DNA from: Escherichia phage ECP2303
Length of the DNA: 64,000 nucleotides
Strand: one strand, 5' to 3'
Sequence record: PP261279.1
In this document: positions 34,976-52,958 of the stretch, one piece after another
How positions within the stretch are numbered: position 1 is the stretch's first letter
How the letters are laid out: each line of letters starts with the position of its first letter
The notes under the pieces: model-generated
Database searches by the model: none
What the model saw: the letters and a program-made list of their open reading frames with translations, nothing else
What the model was told of the DNA's origin: nothing
Program-made: the position numbers and the translations under genes

Positions 34976-36160
34976 TTAAGCTTTAGCCAAAATGGCGCTA
35001 AACTCTTCACCAAACTCTTTTACAATCTTCATCAGGTTTGGGTATGCTTTGATCAGCTGAGCAACGATCTTGTCACGACCTTTACCGATAAGCAAGGCAT
35101 TTCCTAAGGCATTAGGTTTCATCATCGCCATAAAGACTGAAAATACAAAATCTCGGTTCTCGTCCTTGAAGTTTTCCCAAAGGAAATCGAGAAAGTTTGC
35201 CACACAGCTAACAAGATCTTCGTCGGAGATACTTGCATTTTCCATCATATTACGAATAGCGATGCAACCTTCAGATCCAAGAATCCACAAGATGTCTGGC
35301 TGTTTAGGACCTACGTATTCTTTGCAACCTCCTGCCATAATCCGACCGATTTCCGGTAAGTTGCGTTTCTTGGTGTGGTAAGTCCAGATCTCTACCGCTG
35401 CAGTGTGACCAATAGCACCTTGCAGAAGAACACGGGCCATAGCGTCAGAAATAATACCGCTGTCAAAATCGTGCAAGATATCAGATGCAGCAACCCAAGA
35501 TCGCGGTGTGGCAAAAGATGGACAATTAATCTCAGCCATGGCCTCATAATTATCGATAGCTGATGGAACTCTTTTCAGATATCCAATTACAGAGGAGTGC
35601 ACCCCATTAAGGAATGCGTAGTCCTCAATAAACACCTCTGCATTGCTTGTAACCTCTACAATGATAAAACGGTTAGCCAGAGGGGCTTCGAGCGCCGAAA
35701 GAACCGCACCATCTGTAGAACGGTTACCAGCAGCCACAAAAACAGACCCCTTAGGGAATGCATAAGTACCGCACTTGTGGTCAAGCATAATTTGCATTGC
35801 AACCTTTTGTAGGTAGTTATCTGCATGAGTGAGCTCATCCAGAAAGATAATTCCGCTCCAGTCAGGATCCGCAGGCCAAAATTCTGGAATTGCAAACACT
35901 GTACGTGTAGTTCCATCCGCTTCTACAGGGATAGGTAGCCCAGATAAGTCGGCAGGATCTTTATCTGACAGCCGCACGTCAACAAGGTTGTCATCTCGCT
36001 CACCGAACATATTATCAGCGATCTGCTTCATCACCTGGCTTTTACCTACACCCATTGGTCCCAAAATTAGGACAGATCGGCTATGACGTTGGGCAAACTG
36101 AATAATAGCTGGCAACTCACGGACAGTGATTTGACCACTTTCGAATACGTTTCTTGACAT
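34976..36160 (-). CDS. MoxR-like AAA+ ATPase (AAA_5-type)
   Basis: 394 aa; Walker A LILGPMGVGKSQ; Walker B IIFLDELTHA; AAGNRS. Confidence 0.75.
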   Translation of the reverse strand: MSRNVFESGQITVRELPAIIQFAQRHSRSVLILGPMGVGKSQVMKQIADNMFGERDDNLVDVRLSDKDPADLSGLPIPVEADGTTRTVFAIPEFWPADPDWSGIIFLDELTHADNYLQKVAMQIMLDHKCGTYAFPKGSVFVAAGNRSTDGAVLSALEAPLANRFIIVEVTSNAEVFIEDYAFLNGVHSSVIGYLKRVPSAIDNYEAMAEINCPSFATPRSWVAASDILHDFDSGIISDAMARVLLQGAIGHTAAVEIWTYHTKKRNLPEIGRIMAGGCKEYVGPKQPDILWILGSEGCIAIRNMMENASISDEDLVSCVANFLDFLWENFKDENRDFVFSVFMAMMKPNALGNALLIGKGRDKIVAQLIKAYPNLMKIVKEFGEEFSAILAKA

Positions 36161-39777: not shown

Positions 39778-39810
39778 TGACAGGGGCCATTGGCCCCTTC
39801 TGGAGTTTTA

Positions 39811-41271
39811 ATGGATAGCAGAAGTTCAGAAATCATTGCCTCACAGAAAGATGATGCCCTGAGAATGTTGCAGGCTGCACGTATGTATCTCCTTGAAAAG
39901 CTGCCGTTTTATGGCACACTGCTGTCAGGATTGCAGTTCGTAGAAAACCACACATGGTGCTCCACCATGGCAACCGACCATAAACGCATCTATTACAGCC
40001 CTGAGTTCATTATGGGATTGGCTGATGAACGCAAGGTTATTCTTAAGGCTTCTCTAACTGACGAACAGTTTGAGATGGCTGAGGTTTTCTATTCCCTCAA
40101 ATCTGTGAAAGAGGTGGCTTTTCTTCTGTCACACGAGGTGGGGCATATTATCTGTGATCACCTGGTCCGTGGTAAAAGCTTCGAGCCGGAACTGTTTAAT
40201 ATTGCTTGTGATCATGTTATCAACACAGGTCTTGTGGTTGACTTTAGCAAGCCTCCCTGTGTTTTCTTCCCGAAGGGGAAAAGCACTACGTTCGTGAAAG
40301 GTAAGCCTTTTGGTTTCTTAGCCAGCTGCTACTGCGACATGAGGTTTCATGGATGGATTGCTGAGAACGTCTATGCGGTTCTTGATAAGCAAAGAGATCA
40401 GAATAACGGTAAAAGTAAGAGCGGTAAAGGTGAGAACTCTCAAGGGGATAAGCGACAAACCGATGATCACATGAGTGGGAACGGTGGCACCAGCGATGAT
40501 CTTGGAAAGGCTATGGGGTATGATCAGCCACAACCTGTAATCAGCCAATCTGATAAAGATCAGGCCATGCAAGACTCTGGTGACATGCTGGAAGCAGCAA
40601 TGCAAGCTTCCGGAGGTCGTTGCCCCGAGGCGGTGCGTGAGTTTGTCAAGAACAGAGGTAAGCCTGTAATCAACTATATAGACATCATTAAGCAACGCAT
40701 GTTGTCTAAACGAAAGGCCGAACTGACCTACAGAAAACCTGGTCGCCGATCTGGGTCTTTGACCAGCACAATGCGAAAAGTTGGGGCTATAAACAAGAAC
40801 CAGCACGTTATTGTTCCTGGTCGTAATCCGGAAAACACCATAGATATTGTGGTAGCTTTAGACGTTTCTGGCTCGATATCTCAAAGAACTTTAAAGAAAA
40901 TGTTCAATGAAATCACCGGATTGTGCAATCTGTATAAAGAGTTTAAGGTTACAATGTTCTGTTGGTCAACTGAAGTCGGAGAGGTTAAAGTATATACTCG
41001 CGGCAACATAGACGAAATGATCAACTATGAGGTCCACTCAACATGGGGCACAACAGCTGCTTGCGTGTTCGAGTATCTGGATGCCAACATACCAAATGCA
41101 AAAGATGTCATCGTCCTGACCGACCTATACTTTGAGCATAACTTTGAACAAAAGGCTGTTGACAACAAGTGGAAAAAGTACGATACTTTATGGGTTCTCA
41201 CCGAAGGGTATAATAAAAATTATATCCCTAGCTTTGGTAAAACTGTGGAATTAATCGAGTACGCTAAGTAA
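39811..41271 (+). CDS. vWA-domain protein with N-terminal HExxH putative metallopeptidase domain
   Basis: HExxH in LLSHEVGHIICDH; MIDAS-like DxSxS in VVALDVSGSIS; ATG at 39811 after ggag. Confidence 0.7.
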   Translation: MDSRSSEIIASQKDDALRMLQAARMYLLEKLPFYGTLLSGLQFVENHTWCSTMATDHKRIYYSPEFIMGLADERKVILKASLTDEQFEMAEVFYSLKSVKEVAFLLSHEVGHIICDHLVRGKSFEPELFNIACDHVINTGLVVDFSKPPCVFFPKGKSTTFVKGKPFGFLASCYCDMRFHGWIAENVYAVLDKQRDQNNGKSKSGKGENSQGDKRQTDDHMSGNGGTSDDLGKAMGYDQPQPVISQSDKDQAMQDSGDMLEAAMQASGGRCPEAVREFVKNRGKPVINYIDIIKQRMLSKRKAELTYRKPGRRSGSLTSTMRKVGAINKNQHVIVPGRNPENTIDIVVALDVSGSISQRTLKKMFNEITGLCNLYKEFKVTMFCWSTEVGEVKVYTRGNIDEMINYEVHSTWGTTAACVFEYLDANIPNAKDVIVLTDLYFEHNFEQKAVDNKWKKYDTLWVLTEGYNKNYIPSFGKTVELIEYAK

Positions 41272-45484: not shown

Positions 45485-45520
45485 TAAAAAGAAAGGGGCC
45501 GTTTGGCCCCTTTTTATTTA
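45485..45520. terminator. bidirectional rho-independent terminator between convergent operons
   Basis: Hairpin aaaggggccgtttggcccctttt flanked by A-run on one side and T-run on the other. Confidence 0.7.
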
Positions 45521-45527
45521 CCCCTTG

Positions 45528-48500
45528 TTAACGAGAAAAGGTTGCGTAGGCTTCTAGACGATACTGCTGGTCACCAGGGAACATAACACCTATAGAGGCT
45601 GTCCCTAGAATCCTGCCTTCCCTTCCAGACTCCATTCTGAACCCTACCCATCCTGAACTCCTTGCAGCCTCGATGTTGTCGCTATACCCGAAAGTGGCAA
45701 GATCGTCAACACCAGCCCCAAACAGCAACTGAAGCTGACTTCTCGGAAGCCCTATAATTTCAGGAATATACGCACCAAAGTACACCATCTGCCCTACCTT
45801 AGGACCGCTGCCGTACTCCATCGGTTTGCTTGTAGAGAAAGTCTTCATACCAGAAGTACCTGCCGGATTAGGGTATGCCCCGTTTGTTGCTGTACCTATC
45901 CACATTCTCCACTGTGGTGCCATCTGTTTAACAGTAAAAGATGTTGAGGACGTTTTGCGGCCTGCATCATCTGTAACTACAAACTTTATGGTGACATTCC
46001 CAGTAGCTTTAAATGTTACCAGTCCTGTGGTAGCATCCACTGTTGCAATGTTGGTATTGCTACTTTCCCAAGTCTTTCTAATCCCAGATACGTTGGAAGG
46101 GGTAATAGAAGGTTCCTGCATCTGCAGTTTACCGCCCACAATCCCTATGCCGTTGCCAGGATTATACAGTGCACCAACCTCGTCTATAATGTTCCCTGCT
46201 TTGAGACTATACTTCCTTGAGAAATTGTAGGTTCCGTTATAAGTGTGTGTCCCTGAGAAGGTGACATCTGCCTTCCCGTAAGAGATGCAAACCAACGCAT
46301 ACTTCCTGTCAGGCAACGTTTCTCCAGTCTCTGGGTGAGTTTTACCTACCTGGAACACACTCGGGTCAGTAGAGTCGTGACTATCACTAACGGAGCTTGG
46401 ACCGCCCATCAACTGTGACAAACAATTCCTTACCCATGTCCAGTTATTATCGCTGGAGAAGTCCACAGTCAAATCAAACACAACCCACTCATTTGGCTTC
46501 CACACAGGTGTTGTAATGGACTTGCCTACACCACCTCCTTGGAGTGTTGCCGACTGTTCAGTGATCAGGGCCGCATAGGCCAGAGTTCCTAAACTCAGAG
46601 TCTGGCTTGCTGTCCTCACTACCTTAGAATCAGCATCTGTGAAGTTGTTGATGATTTGGAATGTGCCATAAGTGTTTTTACAGGTAATTCTGGCGTTCAG
46701 TGTGTCAATCTTCCTCACATCTGCCATAGCAGTGTTAGACACAGAGAAGTCAGAAGCTTTAGCTGAGTTTGCCGCAACAGCAGGATCAACGTTAAGAGTT
46801 GCGTTGAACTGACAAGCAGGAGTAACCAGTAGCTTGTTATCACCTATTTGCTTCCATGAAACACTTTGAACAGGGAGATTCCATTTAATACCTGAGAAAA
46901 CCTTAGCAACCCTTGGCCCCAAAGCTCCAGTCCTGTTGTCTTTACAGCACATAGACATGGTGATCGTTGACGGAGTGGCCTGACCAAATAATTGCTGTGC
47001 TTTTGCAGAGGACATAGTGTAGAAATTGTCCTTAACAAACTCATCAGCAGCTAAAGATCCATCAGCTCTCCACCACTGAACCTGATACCCTGTTTTGTCC
47101 CAACCACCGACCTGCTTCAAGTCCTCCCAGGAGATTTCCAGATCCCCGGTGGTAGGATTGATTGCAGCAGTTCCTGGTGTTCCAGATGACCATATTGGAA
47201 TATCGAACCACGCTGGTTTAACCGACTGCACTGCGCTGGGACCTATTGCGGCAGCAAGTTGCTGGCCCATCAATACGCGAGCATCTTTCACCAGACCCCA
47301 CTCAATCATAGACCCAGAGTAACCTTCTTTCTTGTAGGCTGAGGATCCGTTCAAATGGATGAGTCGGCTTGTGCCAAAGTTATGTGCTCCACCACCGTTG
47401 TCGTCTGCAAAATTGGTTATGATTCTGTCCCTGATATTTTTCCATGCCCTGCCTCCAATCTCGTAGTCATGGTCATAACATCTTTGCAGTGTTGTCCAGC
47501 AAATGATCGCCATCCTTCTACCATTGCTGAAGCCAAAGGCCTGATCGTTAAGCTCTCTCCACAAGTAGCAGTTGGTGGTCCACATGGCCCTATGAATGTT
47601 AAACCAGTTTATAGATTTGGCTGAGTTGTTCCACTGAGTCCCAGGTAATTCAGGCCATACTGCATTAACCAGCATGTCTTCTGTTCCTGCATCAACCAAG
47701 AACCCTCTCACCTTCTTACCCATGCCTACCCTATCTTTTGCAATCCAACTGCCAAACAATCTCAGTTTTGGACCGTAGACAACATCTTCCGGATGCTCAA
47801 AAGAAATATATTTTAGGTATATTGTAGGGTCACCATAGGTGCCATCACAAACAGCTTTGTGCATGTTCTCACCAAGGTCTAGACGAAGTCCTGTTACAAC
47901 TCTAGACGTGTCGGTGAATTTGTCTGTTAAATCAAACTCATACCACCACCAACCTGCACCCAACAATACTTTCTTACAACGCTGTGCATCTGTATCAGAT
48001 ATTCTCTTATCGCCTGCAAAAGGTGAGTCAGCAAACTGATAGTGCAGAGCAACCTCAAAAGGATGTGTGGATGTCCCGTTTTCTGCAAGAACTTGTTTAC
48101 CTATCAGGTCGCACTTAATGATCATCACAACACGTTTGTATCCGTTTGTTACCGGAATTTGCATGGACATGGATGTCCCATCCATGTTTGATCTCAGTGC
48201 AGTCATGATGATATAAGGGTCAACGGCATTGCCCAAAGTCTCAGGACCGGGGATTATCTTATACTTCTTGACCTGCCCCATGATGTAGTCACTTGCGTAA
48301 GTTGCCTCATTCAAGCAAGATCCTCCACCAGGTAACTCACCAGGTCCCCAGAAAAATGCGCCGTAACAGTTGTAGAACCACTTGTTAGGATCGTATTTAT
48401 TCTTGAAGGTCTGAACCTCGTTGGCCTGTTTTGTCAAGAAAACCTGCGTGTCTGTGAAGATTGCAGGGTTTACTCTCGCCTGTCTTGGAGGGTAACCTGT

Positions 48501-51164
48501 AGTTTGGTTAAACCACAAATTACAAGAGTAATCCCTCATATAGTCATAATCAGAGTATTTGTTTACATCTTCGTTCCAACACATGTTTAGGTTGGTACCG
48601 CCCATGCATACAATATATTCTGCGACATACTTATCACTTCTGGTAGGAATACCTATGAACCATCTGTTAACAGGCTCATCCCAAGCTGTGCGCTCATCTT
48701 TAACGCAGATAGCAATCCAGTCATGTGTTCCTGTTTTCTTGCACACATCTCGCTTCATACCATAGTAGAACTCTTTAGTATTCGGCTCAGGTGCATTTAT
48801 CAGGTAACTCCATGCCTGATTTGCATAAGTTCCATTGGTGCGTGGATCATGATCAAAGGCATACATGATGATCCTTTCCCCACCAAGATGTTCGCCAAGA
48901 GTAACTTTGACATTCACATCGCCGTAACCATTGCGAACAACATCCATATTGTCAATAGAGATGCCTCTGGGAGTGTAGGCAATCTTCAGCGAGTTATCCT
49001 CACTAGTGCCACCAAGTGTAATCCCTATGTTGTTTGTTGTCCCGTCGGCATATCTTACTGTGGCTTCCCAGCGTATTCCGAAATATCCTGCATCATGGCT
49101 AACAATTTTCAGTGTACGAGCACCAGAGTTAGGTTTTCCAGGATCAGGCCAAGGATTTGGATGTTCATGGACAGTCAACGATGTCCCGTTTTGCTCGTTG
49201 ACCTGCAACATTTTACCGCCTCTGCCGTTAGGGTTGAACTCCCACAAGGCTTGTGTTTTCACAATATTGTCATACGTGGTACGTCTCTGATCGTAGATCT
49301 CCTGAGTCACATCGTAGGTTACAGACCCGGCATCCATTCTATGGAGTCGTACTATATACGATGTATCGCCTTCTACAGCAGGTTGAGCTGCGTTAAGCCC
49401 GAAGTATACAGTATCGTTGACATGGAACTGTTTGTTTCTACCGACAGTATGCCACTTGCCGTTGGACGGGTACGCTGGGACGATAGTGTTCCAGTTCAAA
49501 GTCCTTGTTGTGTGGGTTCTGCCTGTGCCATGTTTGTCATGATAGGTTATTTTTACAGAGTACAGTCCACGTCTGTTAACATTTCTGTTATATTGGGTAA
49601 CAACAACTTCGTTGGCCCCGCCGTGGTTCCAGTTGGTGGAGAATTGGTAATTTGCATCTGTAACAACCGTGCCTGCAGCATTTACCAGTTCAATCTTGTC
49701 AATAATGAACGTAGCCCCCTCTGGCTGAGGCTTCAATTTCATCTTGACCGTGTCACCAATGTAAATATTGCTAACGCTGCTAACACCGTTAACTTCGAAA
49801 ATATCATCAACACCCCAACTGTCTACTGGGACATTTTTATACCAATTCTCAGGAACCTCTGTGAACCCCTGGCTATTAAGTCTGCCGCCAAACAGGTTGT
49901 TAGATCCTGCAAAACTTCCCCTTGGGATGCCTGACCACCAAAGTTTACCATTAACAACAGTAAAGGTTCCTAAGAAACCTTCTCTGTGGATGCCTTGGAA
50001 ATAAACACTCTCTGTCCAGCTAACTGGCAGGCGTTGCTCAACATATTTAGCTGTAGCAAGAGCTTGATAGTGGATAAAATTAGCCCTAGGGCTATTGTTT
50101 GCAGATTGTGCACCAATATCATTACACAAGTTGCGAGAGAATCCACGATACTGTTTAGTGCCATTATTGAAGAAAATGCCACTTGTGCCATATCCACGAG
50201 CCATTATCACCTCATGGGTGTAGGTGATATTTAAGGAACGCCATGTGTCATCTCCCCAGACGTCTTGCCCGTAGAATACGTTAACAAGCTGCTGGTCATT
50301 GGGTTTGTGCATCCTCTGTGTGGCAATTATTGCCCCGTTAGGGCCACACATAAACCCTTTCCACTCCTCATCTGCAGGAATGCCCCTCAAATCGTTACGA
50401 GTAATCTGCACAGGGGGCCAAACAAGGTCGTTTCTACTGTTATTTCTCAGAAAGTCGTATCCAGCAATCCAGAAACCCCTAGGACCACCGAAAATAACAG
50501 AATTGTCATGCACCTCGCAGTTGATGCTTGGGTTTTTCCAAGGTCCTGTTTCAGGATTTTCCGATGTCTCACCAATCTTCACAGGGGTTGCATGCTGATT
50601 TTTATCTACATGTAAAGATCCGTAGGTGTTGTTACCAGATCCATACAGGTTAAGTATGCCAGTACCTTCTGCCTCTGCAATAACCCAGACAGTGTTGTTA
50701 ATACCGCCCATCACCTCAATAAGGCGTTCTGGGTGGGTGTCAAGGTGCAATCCTTTAACAATCTGCTCTGGGAGTGGTGTCCACTCGTTTACGCAAACAT
50801 CATTACCGCCTGCAGCAGTGGATCCGATAAGACCTGCAGTGCAGCCGATGTAGAAAAACTGGTTATCAAAAGTCCGGATCACAAACGCGCGGTCTGCTCT
50901 CCACACATGATCAACATTCCAGGCTGTTTCGCTCGGATAGTTTATAGGGCTACGATCCCCAGTGCGGCACTCTCCGAACTTGTTATAGCCGGTAATATTA
51001 AGCTGACCATCATCAAAAAGTATAGCTAAGCTATTTACATAGGATACTGTGTTGCTTGTACCATCACTGTTGTCTATTGGGTATGACAGAACAGCAAGTT
51101 CCTTAATTCCACCCCTCTTATCGAGGAAATGACGACCAAGTTTTAGCAAAGGGATTGGAAGCAT
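45528..51164 (-). CDS. giant structural protein (1878 aa) with RCC1-like repeats and Big_2-like Ig domain; putative tail fibre/adhesin
   Basis: Uninterrupted 5.6-kb ORF; N-terminal Gly-rich repeats of beta-propeller type; C-terminal TWESSNTNIATVDATTGLVTFKATGNVTIKFVVTDDAGR resembles Big_2. Confidence 0.8.
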   Translation of the reverse strand: MLPIPLLKLGRHFLDKRGGIKELAVLSYPIDNSDGTSNTVSYVNSLAILFDDGQLNITGYNKFGECRTGDRSPINYPSETAWNVDHVWRADRAFVIRTFDNQFFYIGCTAGLIGSTAAGGNDVCVNEWTPLPEQIVKGLHLDTHPERLIEVMGGINNTVWVIAEAEGTGILNLYGSGNNTYGSLHVDKNQHATPVKIGETSENPETGPWKNPSINCEVHDNSVIFGGPRGFWIAGYDFLRNNSRNDLVWPPVQITRNDLRGIPADEEWKGFMCGPNGAIIATQRMHKPNDQQLVNVFYGQDVWGDDTWRSLNITYTHEVIMARGYGTSGIFFNNGTKQYRGFSRNLCNDIGAQSANNSPRANFIHYQALATAKYVEQRLPVSWTESVYFQGIHREGFLGTFTVVNGKLWWSGIPRGSFAGSNNLFGGRLNSQGFTEVPENWYKNVPVDSWGVDDIFEVNGVSSVSNIYIGDTVKMKLKPQPEGATFIIDKIELVNAAGTVVTDANYQFSTNWNHGGANEVVVTQYNRNVNRRGLYSVKITYHDKHGTGRTHTTRTLNWNTIVPAYPSNGKWHTVGRNKQFHVNDTVYFGLNAAQPAVEGDTSYIVRLHRMDAGSVTYDVTQEIYDQRRTTYDNIVKTQALWEFNPNGRGGKMLQVNEQNGTSLTVHEHPNPWPDPGKPNSGARTLKIVSHDAGYFGIRWEATVRYADGTTNNIGITLGGTSEDNSLKIAYTPRGISIDNMDVVRNGYGDVNVKVTLGEHLGGERIIMYAFDHDPRTNGTYANQAWSYLINAPEPNTKEFYYGMKRDVCKKTGTHDWIAICVKDERTAWDEPVNRWFIGIPTRSDKYVAEYIVCMGGTNLNMCWNEDVNKYSDYDYMRDYSCNLWFNQTTGYPPRQARVNPAIFTDTQVFLTKQANEVQTFKNKYDPNKWFYNCYGAFFWGPGELPGGGSCLNEATYASDYIMGQVKKYKIIPGPETLGNAVDPYIIMTALRSNMDGTSMSMQIPVTNGYKRVVMIIKCDLIGKQVLAENGTSTHPFEVALHYQFADSPFAGDKRISDTDAQRCKKVLLGAGWWWYEFDLTDKFTDTSRVVTGLRLDLGENMHKAVCDGTYGDPTIYLKYISFEHPEDVVYGPKLRLFGSWIAKDRVGMGKKVRGFLVDAGTEDMLVNAVWPELPGTQWNNSAKSINWFNIHRAMWTTNCYLWRELNDQAFGFSNGRRMAIICWTTLQRCYDHDYEIGGRAWKNIRDRIITNFADDNGGGAHNFGTSRLIHLNGSSAYKKEGYSGSMIEWGLVKDARVLMGQQLAAAIGPSAVQSVKPAWFDIPIWSSGTPGTAAINPTTGDLEISWEDLKQVGGWDKTGYQVQWWRADGSLAADEFVKDNFYTMSSAKAQQLFGQATPSTITMSMCCKDNRTGALGPRVAKVFSGIKWNLPVQSVSWKQIGDNKLLVTPACQFNATLNVDPAVAANSAKASDFSVSNTAMADVRKIDTLNARITCKNTYGTFQIINNFTDADSKVVRTASQTLSLGTLAYAALITEQSATLQGGGVGKSITTPVWKPNEWVVFDLTVDFSSDNNWTWVRNCLSQLMGGPSSVSDSHDSTDPSVFQVGKTHPETGETLPDRKYALVCISYGKADVTFSGTHTYNGTYNFSRKYSLKAGNIIDEVGALYNPGNGIGIVGGKLQMQEPSITPSNVSGIRKTWESSNTNIATVDATTGLVTFKATGNVTIKFVVTDDAGRKTSSTSFTVKQMAPQWRMWIGTATNGAYPNPAGTSGMKTFSTSKPMEYGSGPKVGQMVYFGAYIPEIIGLPRSQLQLLFGAGVDDLATFGYSDNIEAARSSGWVGFRMESGREGRILGTASIGVMFPGDQQYRLEAYATFSR

Positions 51165-51212
51165 TGTGTTCTCCAGATAAGAAAACCGCCCCGTCAGGAG
51201 CGGTTAGATATA

Positions 51213-52958
51213 TTAACGTTGTGCAATTACTACGTCTACGATATCACCAACACCACAATACGTTAATTGCAGCAAGGTAACACTGTTAGCCTTGTTGTTA
51301 ATAACAGGTGTTGCCGACAGGATAGCATACTTATCGTGCAAAGTCACGTTGTGACCTACAGCATCCTGAATTACATAGATAACCGCAGTGAATGGATAAG
51401 GTTTATCTTCCGCTGATGTCCCAGGCCACTGTCCTATTGTAAAATCCCCTTTCGCGTGAACAACATACATACTGGCCTGCCCGTTAGGTGTCCATGTCCC
51501 ACTGGACGCGTCAACCTCCTCTAAATCAAAATCTACCTTTCCTGCGTGGAAAGTAGGGGCAGTAATGGTTTTACCCGCCTCAATTTCTTGAGAGGTGGTT
51601 ATCTTGCCACTGGAGTTAATGCCATTACAGACAAAGTTGACATTAGAGAAGTCAGGCAACCACCCAGTCACCGTGCCGGATATTTCAAGGTTGTGAACAG
51701 AGGTGGTGCCAGTCCCTGCTGCGTTTAAACTGACATCTCCATTTACCTGCAAGTTGCGGGTAACGTTGCAGTTTTCAGAGTTTGCAGTTGTTGCAGTTAA
51801 AGTGGTTGTTGTCAGCTCGGTAATTACACCTTTGTTGGCTGTAAGCCCTTCTCCTTCAAAAGTTGCACGCTCATTGACTCTTAAGGTATTCAGAGCTATG
51901 TTTTGGATAGAGGCCGTACCTCGAATAACTACAGACCCGCCAATCTCCAAATCGCCATTTATCAATGCATCACCAGTGCTTTCAATATAGCTAGGATAGA
52001 TCATGGTGCCATCGACAGAGTATGTTATCCCTGTAACGGTACCTGTCACCTCAAGGTTCTTAACCCTGGTGGTCCCATCGACCTGCAATGTCGGTTCGGT
52101 TGCTGCCTTCATGGCATTACCACGAATGTACACGTAGTCAAAAAAGTTATTACCCAGACCATCAAAATGCACATCGTTATTATTAGCCACTGGTTTCCCA
52201 GAAGTTATAGTGTCAGCTATAACCCTGTGGGTGGACACTTCATGAGGTTGCAGCTCTGTACTTCTCCAGTCTGCATGCTTAGGATCGCTCCACGCAAAAG
52301 TAAGTGTAGAAGTATTTGCCGTGAGGATTAGATTCCTAAAGCGTGCAGTAGAATCTGCCCCATTAACAGGTCCATGTAAGGTAAGGGTGCCACCAACTAT
52401 AGTGTTAGCGAGTTCTGTAAGACCTTTTACCACCAAAGATCCTACAGTAACTTTCATCCCCTCCATGGCTTTAAATATGCTATCAACATAGTCAACAACA
52501 AACTCTGTGTTTGCTATGGACTCTGACTTATCGTCCATTGGAGGTGTAGGTACTCGCGGGTCACCTTCGAACCTTGGGCTGTTAAGTTTTGCGTAGTATT
52601 TTGCCATTACTGCAGAGTCGGTGTATAATCTCCAGTTTGGAGATTGTGAAGGATCTGCTGGCATTCTAACCGGGTTAGATTTTGATGCTGCTGGGGCGTA
52701 CCACCACTGAGTGCCTGTATCCCCTTTAAACTCATACAACTGGTTAAAAACTGTTGTGGATGCACCATACGCCCAAGGGATTGGTGGCGTTTTAAAATAA
52801 AGGGTGTCAAGCATGGCTTTTCGTACCGTAGGGATAGTGGTCCCATCCTCTACGACAACTTCATCCACAGCGTTACCGTTGACAATCAAGTGCAAACGTT
52901 CAGAATCAACAATTACTTGATCTACCGCCTGCTCGAAGCTTGTCATGTCTTGCGCCAT
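51213..52958 (-). CDS. tail fibre/tailspike-like protein
   Basis: 581 aa; Thr/Gly/Asn-rich beta-helix-like repeats. Confidence 0.65.
   Translation of the reverse strand: MAQDMTSFEQAVDQVIVDSERLHLIVNGNAVDEVVVEDGTTIPTVRKAMLDTLYFKTPPIPWAYGASTTVFNQLYEFKGDTGTQWWYAPAASKSNPVRMPADPSQSPNWRLYTDSAVMAKYYAKLNSPRFEGDPRVPTPPMDDKSESIANTEFVVDYVDSIFKAMEGMKVTVGSLVVKGLTELANTIVGGTLTLHGPVNGADSTARFRNLILTANTSTLTFAWSDPKHADWRSTELQPHEVSTHRVIADTITSGKPVANNNDVHFDGLGNNFFDYVYIRGNAMKAATEPTLQVDGTTRVKNLEVTGTVTGITYSVDGTMIYPSYIESTGDALINGDLEIGGSVVIRGTASIQNIALNTLRVNERATFEGEGLTANKGVITELTTTTLTATTANSENCNVTRNLQVNGDVSLNAAGTGTTSVHNLEISGTVTGWLPDFSNVNFVCNGINSSGKITTSQEIEAGKTITAPTFHAGKVDFDLEEVDASSGTWTPNGQASMYVVHAKGDFTIGQWPGTSAEDKPYPFTAVIYVIQDAVGHNVTLHDKYAILSATPVINNKANSVTLLQLTYCGVGDIVDVVIAQR

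Follow-up and report, generated by a model that had tools for sequence, protein, structure and literature searches.

The 64,000-nucleotide stretch of the Escherichia phage ECP2303 genome analyzed here (PP261279.1; hereafter, the window) carries a 5.6-kb minus-strand gene (45528..51164) whose 1878-residue product we interpret as a low-copy, N-terminally anchored, accessory glycan-binding adhesin at the baseplate periphery, probably monomeric and built of immunoglobulin (Ig)-like and carbohydrate-binding module (CBM)-like beads; we give this interpretation about an even chance of being correct. The gene is the Vequintavirus version of a family that closes the tail-fiber cluster in all rV5-like phages. 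The original prediction, made from the letters of the window, had offered three roles for the protein (fiber, adhesin, or depolymerase-like host-recognition protein), and adhesin proved to be the best of them, given the Ig-like and CBM-like sandwiches, the N-to-C gradient of conservation, and the fast-evolving tip.

The open reading frame (ORF) is complete, with an ATG start and 1878 codons plus the stop (208.4 kDa, pI 6.6), and it ends the tail operon as a single ORF, just as predicted. More specifically, it is the last gene of a minus-strand tail-fiber cluster that comprises, in order, the baseplate wedge, a deacetylase fiber, two short fibers with a chaperone, and a gp28 homologue. Phage ECP2309 (PP464953.1, genus Vequintavirus) is 100% identical to the window at the nucleotide level, and its copy of the protein (WXX18329.1) is annotated as a 'structural protein with Ig domain'. 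The orthologue in rV5 is gp27 (YP_002003529.1), which is alike in position and length, shares 94% amino-acid identity, and bears the annotation 'Ig-like domain-containing protein; cell wall surface anchor'; the BASEL orthologue, bas48_0041, is labeled 'lateral tail fiber protein with intimin domain'. The gene is not new: annotations for it, 'hypothetical' among them, exist in more than 100 genomes and rest only on a single Big_2 match or an Ig-like domain. At least 80% of it is held by 107 phage records at 88-100% nucleotide identity, and across the genus it is 91-98% identical, with no allele swapping seen. A comparison of nine orthologues revealed synonymous divergence (dS) of 0.05-0.9 and nonsynonymous-to-synonymous ratios (dN/dS) of 0.02-0.14 in most 60-codon windows; the gene is real, and selection on it is strongly purifying. 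A 403-aa ATG-initiated ORF on the opposite strand (48723-49934, plus) was rejected as spurious: of the orthologues checked, ECP2309 and HdK5 alone keep it open, and the remaining seven interrupt it. Because dN/dS is low in the nine orthologues and the antisense ORF is broken in most of them, the 1878-codon ORF is not a chance frame.

As a separate matter, at least 15 GenBank 'Campylobacter phage' records (MG0656xx, e.g., H26, H78, H112, and H183-185) carry the gene at 92-99% identity. Their stated host is Campylobacter jejuni, and their genome lengths also fit Vequintavirus coliphages. The host label of these records looks doubtful, and they may represent contaminating coliphages or mislabeling.

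Homology searches identified 15 homologues at 45-96% identity, mostly found only in Logan and ENA assemblies. Identity to the distant homologues falls steadily along the protein, from ~75% over residues 1-440 to 16-40% over residues 1441-1878. By segment, these homologues keep residues 1-1433 at 45-58%, diverge at residues 1434-1584, and show ~36% identity over residues 1585-1860. Within Vequintavirus, the fastest-evolving part is the terminal ~135 residues (1746-1878; 45531..45929, minus strand; dN/dS 0.11-0.32), which form a candidate ligand-binding tip. Judged from the alignments, the gradient and the fast tip together are the pattern of an N-terminally anchored, C-terminally exposed protein. 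A relative with 45% identity has the same gene order at the locus. The full-length homologues of 45-58% identity (P0003-P0015; among them the 123-kb contig L005) were found only in Logan/ENA assemblies, on contigs of up to 142 kb that preserve fiber-cluster synteny, and nothing in the phage collection fell in this range; they look to belong to a sister lineage of Vequintavirus that sampling has missed. Two of these homologues (P0009 and P0014; ~1710 aa) are without the C-terminal Ig module. Searches with residues 1-450 alone and with residues 1585-1878 alone returned near-identical fragments only.

The position at the end of the cluster is also conserved in PVP-SE1, phAPEC8, and phi92 (Seunavirus, Phapecoctavirus, and Justusliebigvirus), whose last fiber-cluster genes encode gp40 (604 aa), gp086 (891 aa), and gp152 (202 aa), respectively, compared with 1878 aa for rV5 gp27. 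All three positional homologues start with M-x-P-I-P and contain Big_2, and all but that of phi92 have an RCC1-like region. Across these subfamilies, only residues 1-200 are held in common. phi92 gp152 is the minimal form, in which two Big_2 domains follow the peptide directly; these share 62% identity with residues 411-587 of the phAPEC8 protein. In this phage (L012:6321-7983, genes 152-153), the M-Y-P-I-P start and the two Big_2 domains are followed by a separate gene for a 295-aa 'tail protein', which has a faint SASA (sialate acetylesterase) match (E 0.008); genes 152 and 153 may be the remains of a longer protein that was split.

The first nine residues, MLPIPLLKL (51138..51164, minus strand), include M1, P3, I4, and P5, which are invariant in all positional homologues, and the M-x-P-I-P start is kept even by phi92 gp152, which is without the propeller. 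Because gp152 passes from the peptide directly to Big_2, this peptide, and not the propeller, is the only universally kept N-terminal element, and we propose it, from sequence conservation, as a candidate attachment peptide.

The predicted RCC1-like beta-propeller region (residues ~40-445; 49830..51047, minus strand) shows the highest conservation in the protein, with ~75% identity to the distant homologues. The original prediction had likened the Gly-rich N-terminal repeats to RCC1 blades, and this holds clearly for the homologues PVP-SE1 gp40 (RCC1 repeat, 36.1 bits against a threshold of 21.7; WD40_RLD, ~1e-10) and phAPEC8 gp086 (24.0 bits against 21.7; WD40_RLD, E 6e-11), whereas the query itself stays below threshold. 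The full-length protein gave no RCC1 match in Pfam at E<=1. Further analysis with residues 1-470 alone revealed a WD40_RLD match over residues 45-199 (E 2e-4; 21.1 bits against a curated cut-off of 150), which recurs as a weak match in 12 of 16 orthologues, an RCC1_2 score of 13.2 bits that does not reach the cut-off of 22, and matches to phrog_4219 'regulator of chromosome condensation' (E 4e-7) and phrog_11922 'tail protein' (E 2e-28). In addition, G-x-N-x-x-G-x-L motifs occur at residues 59 and 177, residues 1-197 are 42% identical to phAPEC8 gp086 (E 8e-29), and residues 393-440 match the last blade of gp086 (E 0.007). Sequence support thus spans residues 41-199 and the 393-440 blade, and the remainder of residues ~40-445 is presumed to be of the same nature. 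A self-comparison with HHalign aligned a sole pair of candidate blades (residues 144-189 against 393-440) at a nonsignificant E of 0.57; seven blades can be drawn by eye only, and ~3 are detectable by sequence. Collectively, homology and sub-threshold profile matches support an RCC1-like assignment for residues 1-445.

At the other end, the C-terminal module (residues 1585-1878; 45531..46412, minus strand) matches phrog_215 'structural protein with Ig domain' (E 2.5e-49) and is made up of Ig-like sandwiches followed by a terminal domain. The Big_2-like Ig segment predicted near the C-terminus was confirmed as PF02368 at residues 1682-1733 (45966..46121, minus strand), with 33.5 bits against a gathering threshold of 22.8 (E 4e-8), inside a wider structural domain of residues ~1656-1760. 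This segment has the fold of an Ig-like beta-sandwich similar to solved Big_2 domains, and the predicted local distance difference test (pLDDT) of the model is 60-90 for residues 1530-1760. A Foldseek search of PDB and BFVD retrieved only generic tandem Ig, cadherin, and S-layer arrays (TM <0.3). The terminal ~135-residue domain had no match in the Pfam copy used, and the precomputed Pfam matches in the source database name PF26918 beside Big_2.

Between these two ends lies a region that is particular to the rV5-type protein. Residues 446-760 (48885..49829, minus strand) appear all-beta and probably form 2-3 Ig-like sandwiches, according to the strand pattern of a low-confidence model; homologues give weak Bact_surface_Ig-like matches here, and the query has no family match. 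Four sub-segments covering residues 446-1584 had no Pfam match at E<=10, and when 1.84 billion representative proteins were searched with HMMER using a profile built from residues 446-1440, only the orthologue cluster and two fragments were recovered, so this region is lineage-specific. It contains a conserved orphan core (residues 761-1433; 46866..48884, minus strand) that is rich in invariant Trp, Asp, and Glu and has no outside homologue. Within the core, residues 1126-1334 (47163..47789, minus strand) are highly conserved, Trp-rich (5.3%), and basic, carry the motifs EDMLVNAVWP, NWFNxHRAMW, and EGYSGSMIEWG, and are predicted to be helical at a pLDDT of ~25. The orphan stretch (~1000 aa) also includes, in the predicted model, a beta-sandwich resembling carbohydrate-binding modules. 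Residues 1434-1584 (46413..46865, minus strand) form the module most unlike the distant homologues, with 16-26% identity and indels.

An enzyme-bearing tail appendage, with residues ~840-1335 as the new catalytic domain of a depolymerase or of an enzyme that modifies glycans, and with CBM-like and Ig-like modules on either side, has to be weighed; we hold it to be decidedly unlikely. In conservation, the core ranks second within the protein, and it has a large number of invariant residues (Trp, Asp, Glu, His, and Cys) as well as motifs like NWFNxHRAMW; the adjacent predicted beta-sandwich resembles CBMs, which are the usual companions of glycoside hydrolases, and the fiber clusters of rV5-like phages are rich in glycan-active domains. 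Against these points, no catalytic domain emerged from Pfam, run on the whole protein, on four sub-segments, and on 16 homologues, or from NCBIfam, PHROGs, or PDB profiles, by sequence or by profile, PDB profile searches of protein segments gave only noise (TraT, T-cell receptor, and cystatin), and the core had no homologue outside the orthologues among the 1.84 billion representatives; the helical prediction stands at the low pLDDT noted above. NWFNxHRAMW may resemble the NNHSYW motif of PL5 lyases, a likeness that has no profile support. The depolymerase-like role of the original prediction therefore found no support.

With respect to the virion, the original prediction of a virion protein is plausible, although weakly documented. 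The homologue PVP-SE1 gp40 is listed among the virion proteins detected by mass spectrometry (MS; Table S6 in PMC11370258), and virions of phage W70 contain three RCC1-like proteins (PMC11370258). For rV5 itself, the multidimensional protein identification technology (MudPIT) table lists gp27 with only 3 weak peptides, 9 spectra, and 3.1% coverage, and gp27 is absent from the paper's discussion (PMC3606486); this coverage is consistent with low abundance. The cryo-EM papers on phi92 (2026) and phiTE (2025) neither resolve nor mention a homologue.

A Hoc-like role in decorating the head or tail tube, or a non-virion protein, such as one released at lysis, would also accommodate part of these data, in that phrog_215, which matches the C-terminal module, is filed under 'head and packaging', decoration domains of tail tubes and capsids are among the Ig matches, the MS signal for rV5 is close to noise, and a terminator-like hairpin (see below) parts the gene from the fiber genes. 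We nevertheless regard this as quite improbable: the position at the end of the fiber cluster is conserved in four phage groups, gp40, the N-terminal homologue, appears on a list of virion-associated proteins, the rV5 head already carries an abundant decoration protein in gp61 (PMC3606486), and our protein has no signal peptide and is encoded within a late cluster.

If the protein is an appendage of the tail, the question arises of whether phages depend on it. At least five deposited genomes carry disrupted copies, and the sites differ among them: magaca has a nonsense codon at position 617 and phita32 one at codon 1439, ime has a 2-bp deletion at codon 1052, and single-bp deletions occur in naswa (codon 762) and Alma (codon 207). 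In addition, the nomine copy is split, and the partly deleted copies in V18 and APECc02 cover 78% and 41% of the gene, respectively. Error is a less ready explanation for the nonsense substitutions and the 2-bp deletion than for the other disruptions. Given these alleles, some of which may be sequencing errors, a need for the gene in infection and a role in host range were not borne out. Purifying selection in nature together with tolerated loss in culture is seen for the accessory adhesins T4 Hoc, lambda Stf, and the T5 lateral fibers. Since the gene combines strong purifying selection with apparent tolerance of its loss in culture, we postulate by analogy with these proteins that it may encode an accessory adhesin.

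A bona fide lateral tail fiber, i.e., a trimeric receptor-binding protein that helps to set host range, as the BASEL label implies, seems unlikely to us. Its location in the fiber cluster, the fiber-typical contrast between a conserved N-terminus (~75%) and a variable C-terminus (16-40%), a tip evolving faster than the rest, and the match of phrog_11922 'tail protein' to the N-terminus all agree with such a fiber, and thin 70-nm fibers are occasionally visible on rV5 virions (PMC3606486). However, no coiled coil, beta-helix, collar, or intramolecular chaperone was found with Pfam, PHROGs, NCBIfam, or PDB, no assembly-chaperone gene adjoins 45528..51164, and a propeller followed by Ig-like beads is the architecture of a monomeric adhesin. 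The 91-98% identity across the genus, without allele swapping, and the disruption of the gene in several deposited genomes also make a host-range-determining fiber unlikely. Moreover, published work attributes K-12 recognition to other gene products. The shared glycan receptor, identified as enterobacterial common antigen (ECA) in the BASEL paper and as NGR in a 2026 preprint, is assigned to the deacetylase-domain fiber protein (phi92 Gp142 type), and the terminal receptor in the lipopolysaccharide (LPS) core is discussed together with the short tail fibers (BASEL paper; 2026 preprint).

In our interpretation, a flanking sequence could keep the copy number low. A GC-rich 9-bp hairpin followed by UUUUCUUAU (51184..51205, minus strand; -16.7 kcal/mol, z -3.8) lies between the stop codon of the upstream fiber gene and the ribosome-binding site, a GGAG (51171..51174, minus strand) that we read from the sequence 6 nt 5' of the ATG. 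The equivalent spacers in the P0015 contig, phAPEC8, and PVP-SE1 each contain a tetraloop hairpin with a GC stem of 8-9 bp, followed by a U-rich tail, and the counterparts 5' of homologues map to L005:9972-9993 (L005 being the Logan SRR26820253 contig), L004:8962-8981, and L013:2842-2863. The position of the hairpin and U-tract is therefore kept in four divergent lineages, and the stem sequence is different in every one. We consider the hairpin a likely intrinsic terminator or attenuator that reduces expression of the last gene and insulates it within the fiber cluster; on this reading, the last gene would be made by read-through and thus below the level of the fiber genes. Past the gene, a second strong hairpin with a T-run (45492..45513, minus strand; -18.7 kcal/mol, z -3.4) begins 15 nt beyond the stop codon, at a site matching the place where rV5 has annotated terminators on both strands, and plus-strand genes converge on it. 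With phAPEC8 and PVP-SE1, the window shares both the hairpin before the gene and the terminator with convergent genes after it.

Collectively, the accessory-adhesin interpretation may be pictured as follows. Read-through of the upstream terminator would hold the copy number low, and the N-terminus (the peptide and/or the propeller) would dock the protein on the baseplate or the fiber network, from which about a dozen globular domains would extend outward like a slender, flexible whisker. Its distal domains, of Ig-like and CBM-like type, would then bind surface or environmental glycans weakly and reversibly, which could raise encounter or retention in natural settings, as with T4 Hoc, lambda Stf, and the T5 lateral fibers, and the protein would not be needed for infecting rough laboratory E. 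coli. A bolder version, which we regard as unlikely, holds that residues 446-1440 contain a new carbohydrate-active or ligand-binding fold and that the protein is a new type of monomeric appendage, with a propeller docked on the baseplate via M-x-P-I-P, a domain chain of 50-70 nm, and a dosage set by terminator read-through. Such a chain could correspond to the thin 70-nm fibers on rV5.

Several observations weigh against the adhesin interpretation. The rV5 gp27 peptides are semi- or non-tryptic, two of them rank 9 and 14, and detections of similar quality in the same MudPIT table include gp228 and the non-structural rIIA (PMC3606486). Alma and V18 also show a split in another fiber gene, used as a 3.8-kb control that overlapped its neighboring gene by one base and whose '(x2)' labels are ambiguous, and they are perhaps error-prone assemblies. 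The upstream hairpin could simply be the mRNA-stabilizing end of the upstream gene, and the highly conserved core, rich in Trp, Asp, and Glu, could be catalytic. Finally, confidence is low for three predicted features, namely the propeller, the CBM-like domain, and the monomeric state. The segment-wise domain search and structure prediction proposed with the original prediction yielded Big_2 and weak RCC1-like matches, but the AlphaFold2 (AF2) models, which drew on only 7-9 homologues, reached a pLDDT of 38.6 for residues 1-760 and 51.4 for residues 761-1878; because both models are poor, these three elements remain tentative.

The neighborhood of the gene offered some further observations. 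The upstream neighbor (51213-52958, minus strand) encodes the 581-aa homologue of rV5 gp28, a 'putative tail fiber'; its L005 counterpart carries Phage_phiTE_241_N and Phage_phiTE_241_C of Pfam, and the 581-aa protein of the window itself had no significant match in the local Pfam copy. GC skew and AT skew flip sign near ~38000 and ~45500, where the direction of transcription switches, and a block of small plus-strand early genes sits between minus-strand blocks. One gene of the window (39790-41271, plus strand; 493 aa) is named 'HNH endonuclease' in ECP2309 and rV5 and 'putative metallopeptidase' in BASEL; its L005 counterpart bears DUF2201_N and DUF2201, a MoxR-type ATPase gene lies nearby (34976-36160, minus strand), and the name 'HNH endonuclease' is probably a misannotation.

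Few broad-host-range coliphages are isolated as often as the rV5-like phages, which serve in biocontrol and therapy, and the BASEL authors note that it is unclear which genes build which fiber. Our analysis suggests that the cluster's largest product probably acts as a low-copy accessory adhesin and not as a core receptor-binding protein, that its truncation is tolerated in deposited phage genomes, and that its N-terminal 200 residues are a module shared across subfamilies. Engineering or display could also make use of the gene as a permissive site. The new elements are the domain map, the positional family that combines RCC1 and Ig elements with a shared N-terminal peptide, the orphan core, the upstream hairpin, and the catalogue of disrupted alleles; none of these points overturns current views.

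Compared with known systems, rV5 gp27 and the other Vequintavirus orthologues represent the same gene, with no structural difference. The rV5-type protein is 2-9 times longer than its positional homologues in PVP-SE1, phAPEC8, and phi92, resembles them only weakly outside the first 200 residues, and has in residues 446-1584 (~1000-1200 aa) a stretch with no counterpart in them or elsewhere. An intimin/invasin adhesin (NF033627) was rejected at 22.6 bits against a cut-off of 1400, with only one Ig domain aligning; unlike these adhesins, the phage protein is without a beta-barrel anchor, LysM, or C-type lectin tip, and the likeness is limited to one domain. With the seven-bladed propellers of RCC1 and BLIP-II (IPR009091), it shares the G-x-N-x-x-G-x-L blade motifs and sub-threshold profile matches, but it falls under every curated threshold (PF00415, PF13540, and PF25390), with ~3 blades detectable by sequence. 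The RCC1-like proteins W70_237-239 of Septuagintavirus, a related genus, have been detected in virions. Accessory phage Ig-domain proteins were reportedly described by Fraser et al. in 2006 and include T4 Hoc, the C-terminal domain of lambda gpV, and Ig-decorated tail tube proteins. In contrast to these, the 1878-aa protein is far larger, combines an orphan core with an RCC1-like N-terminus, and is the product of a fiber-cluster gene instead of a fusion with a capsid or tube protein.

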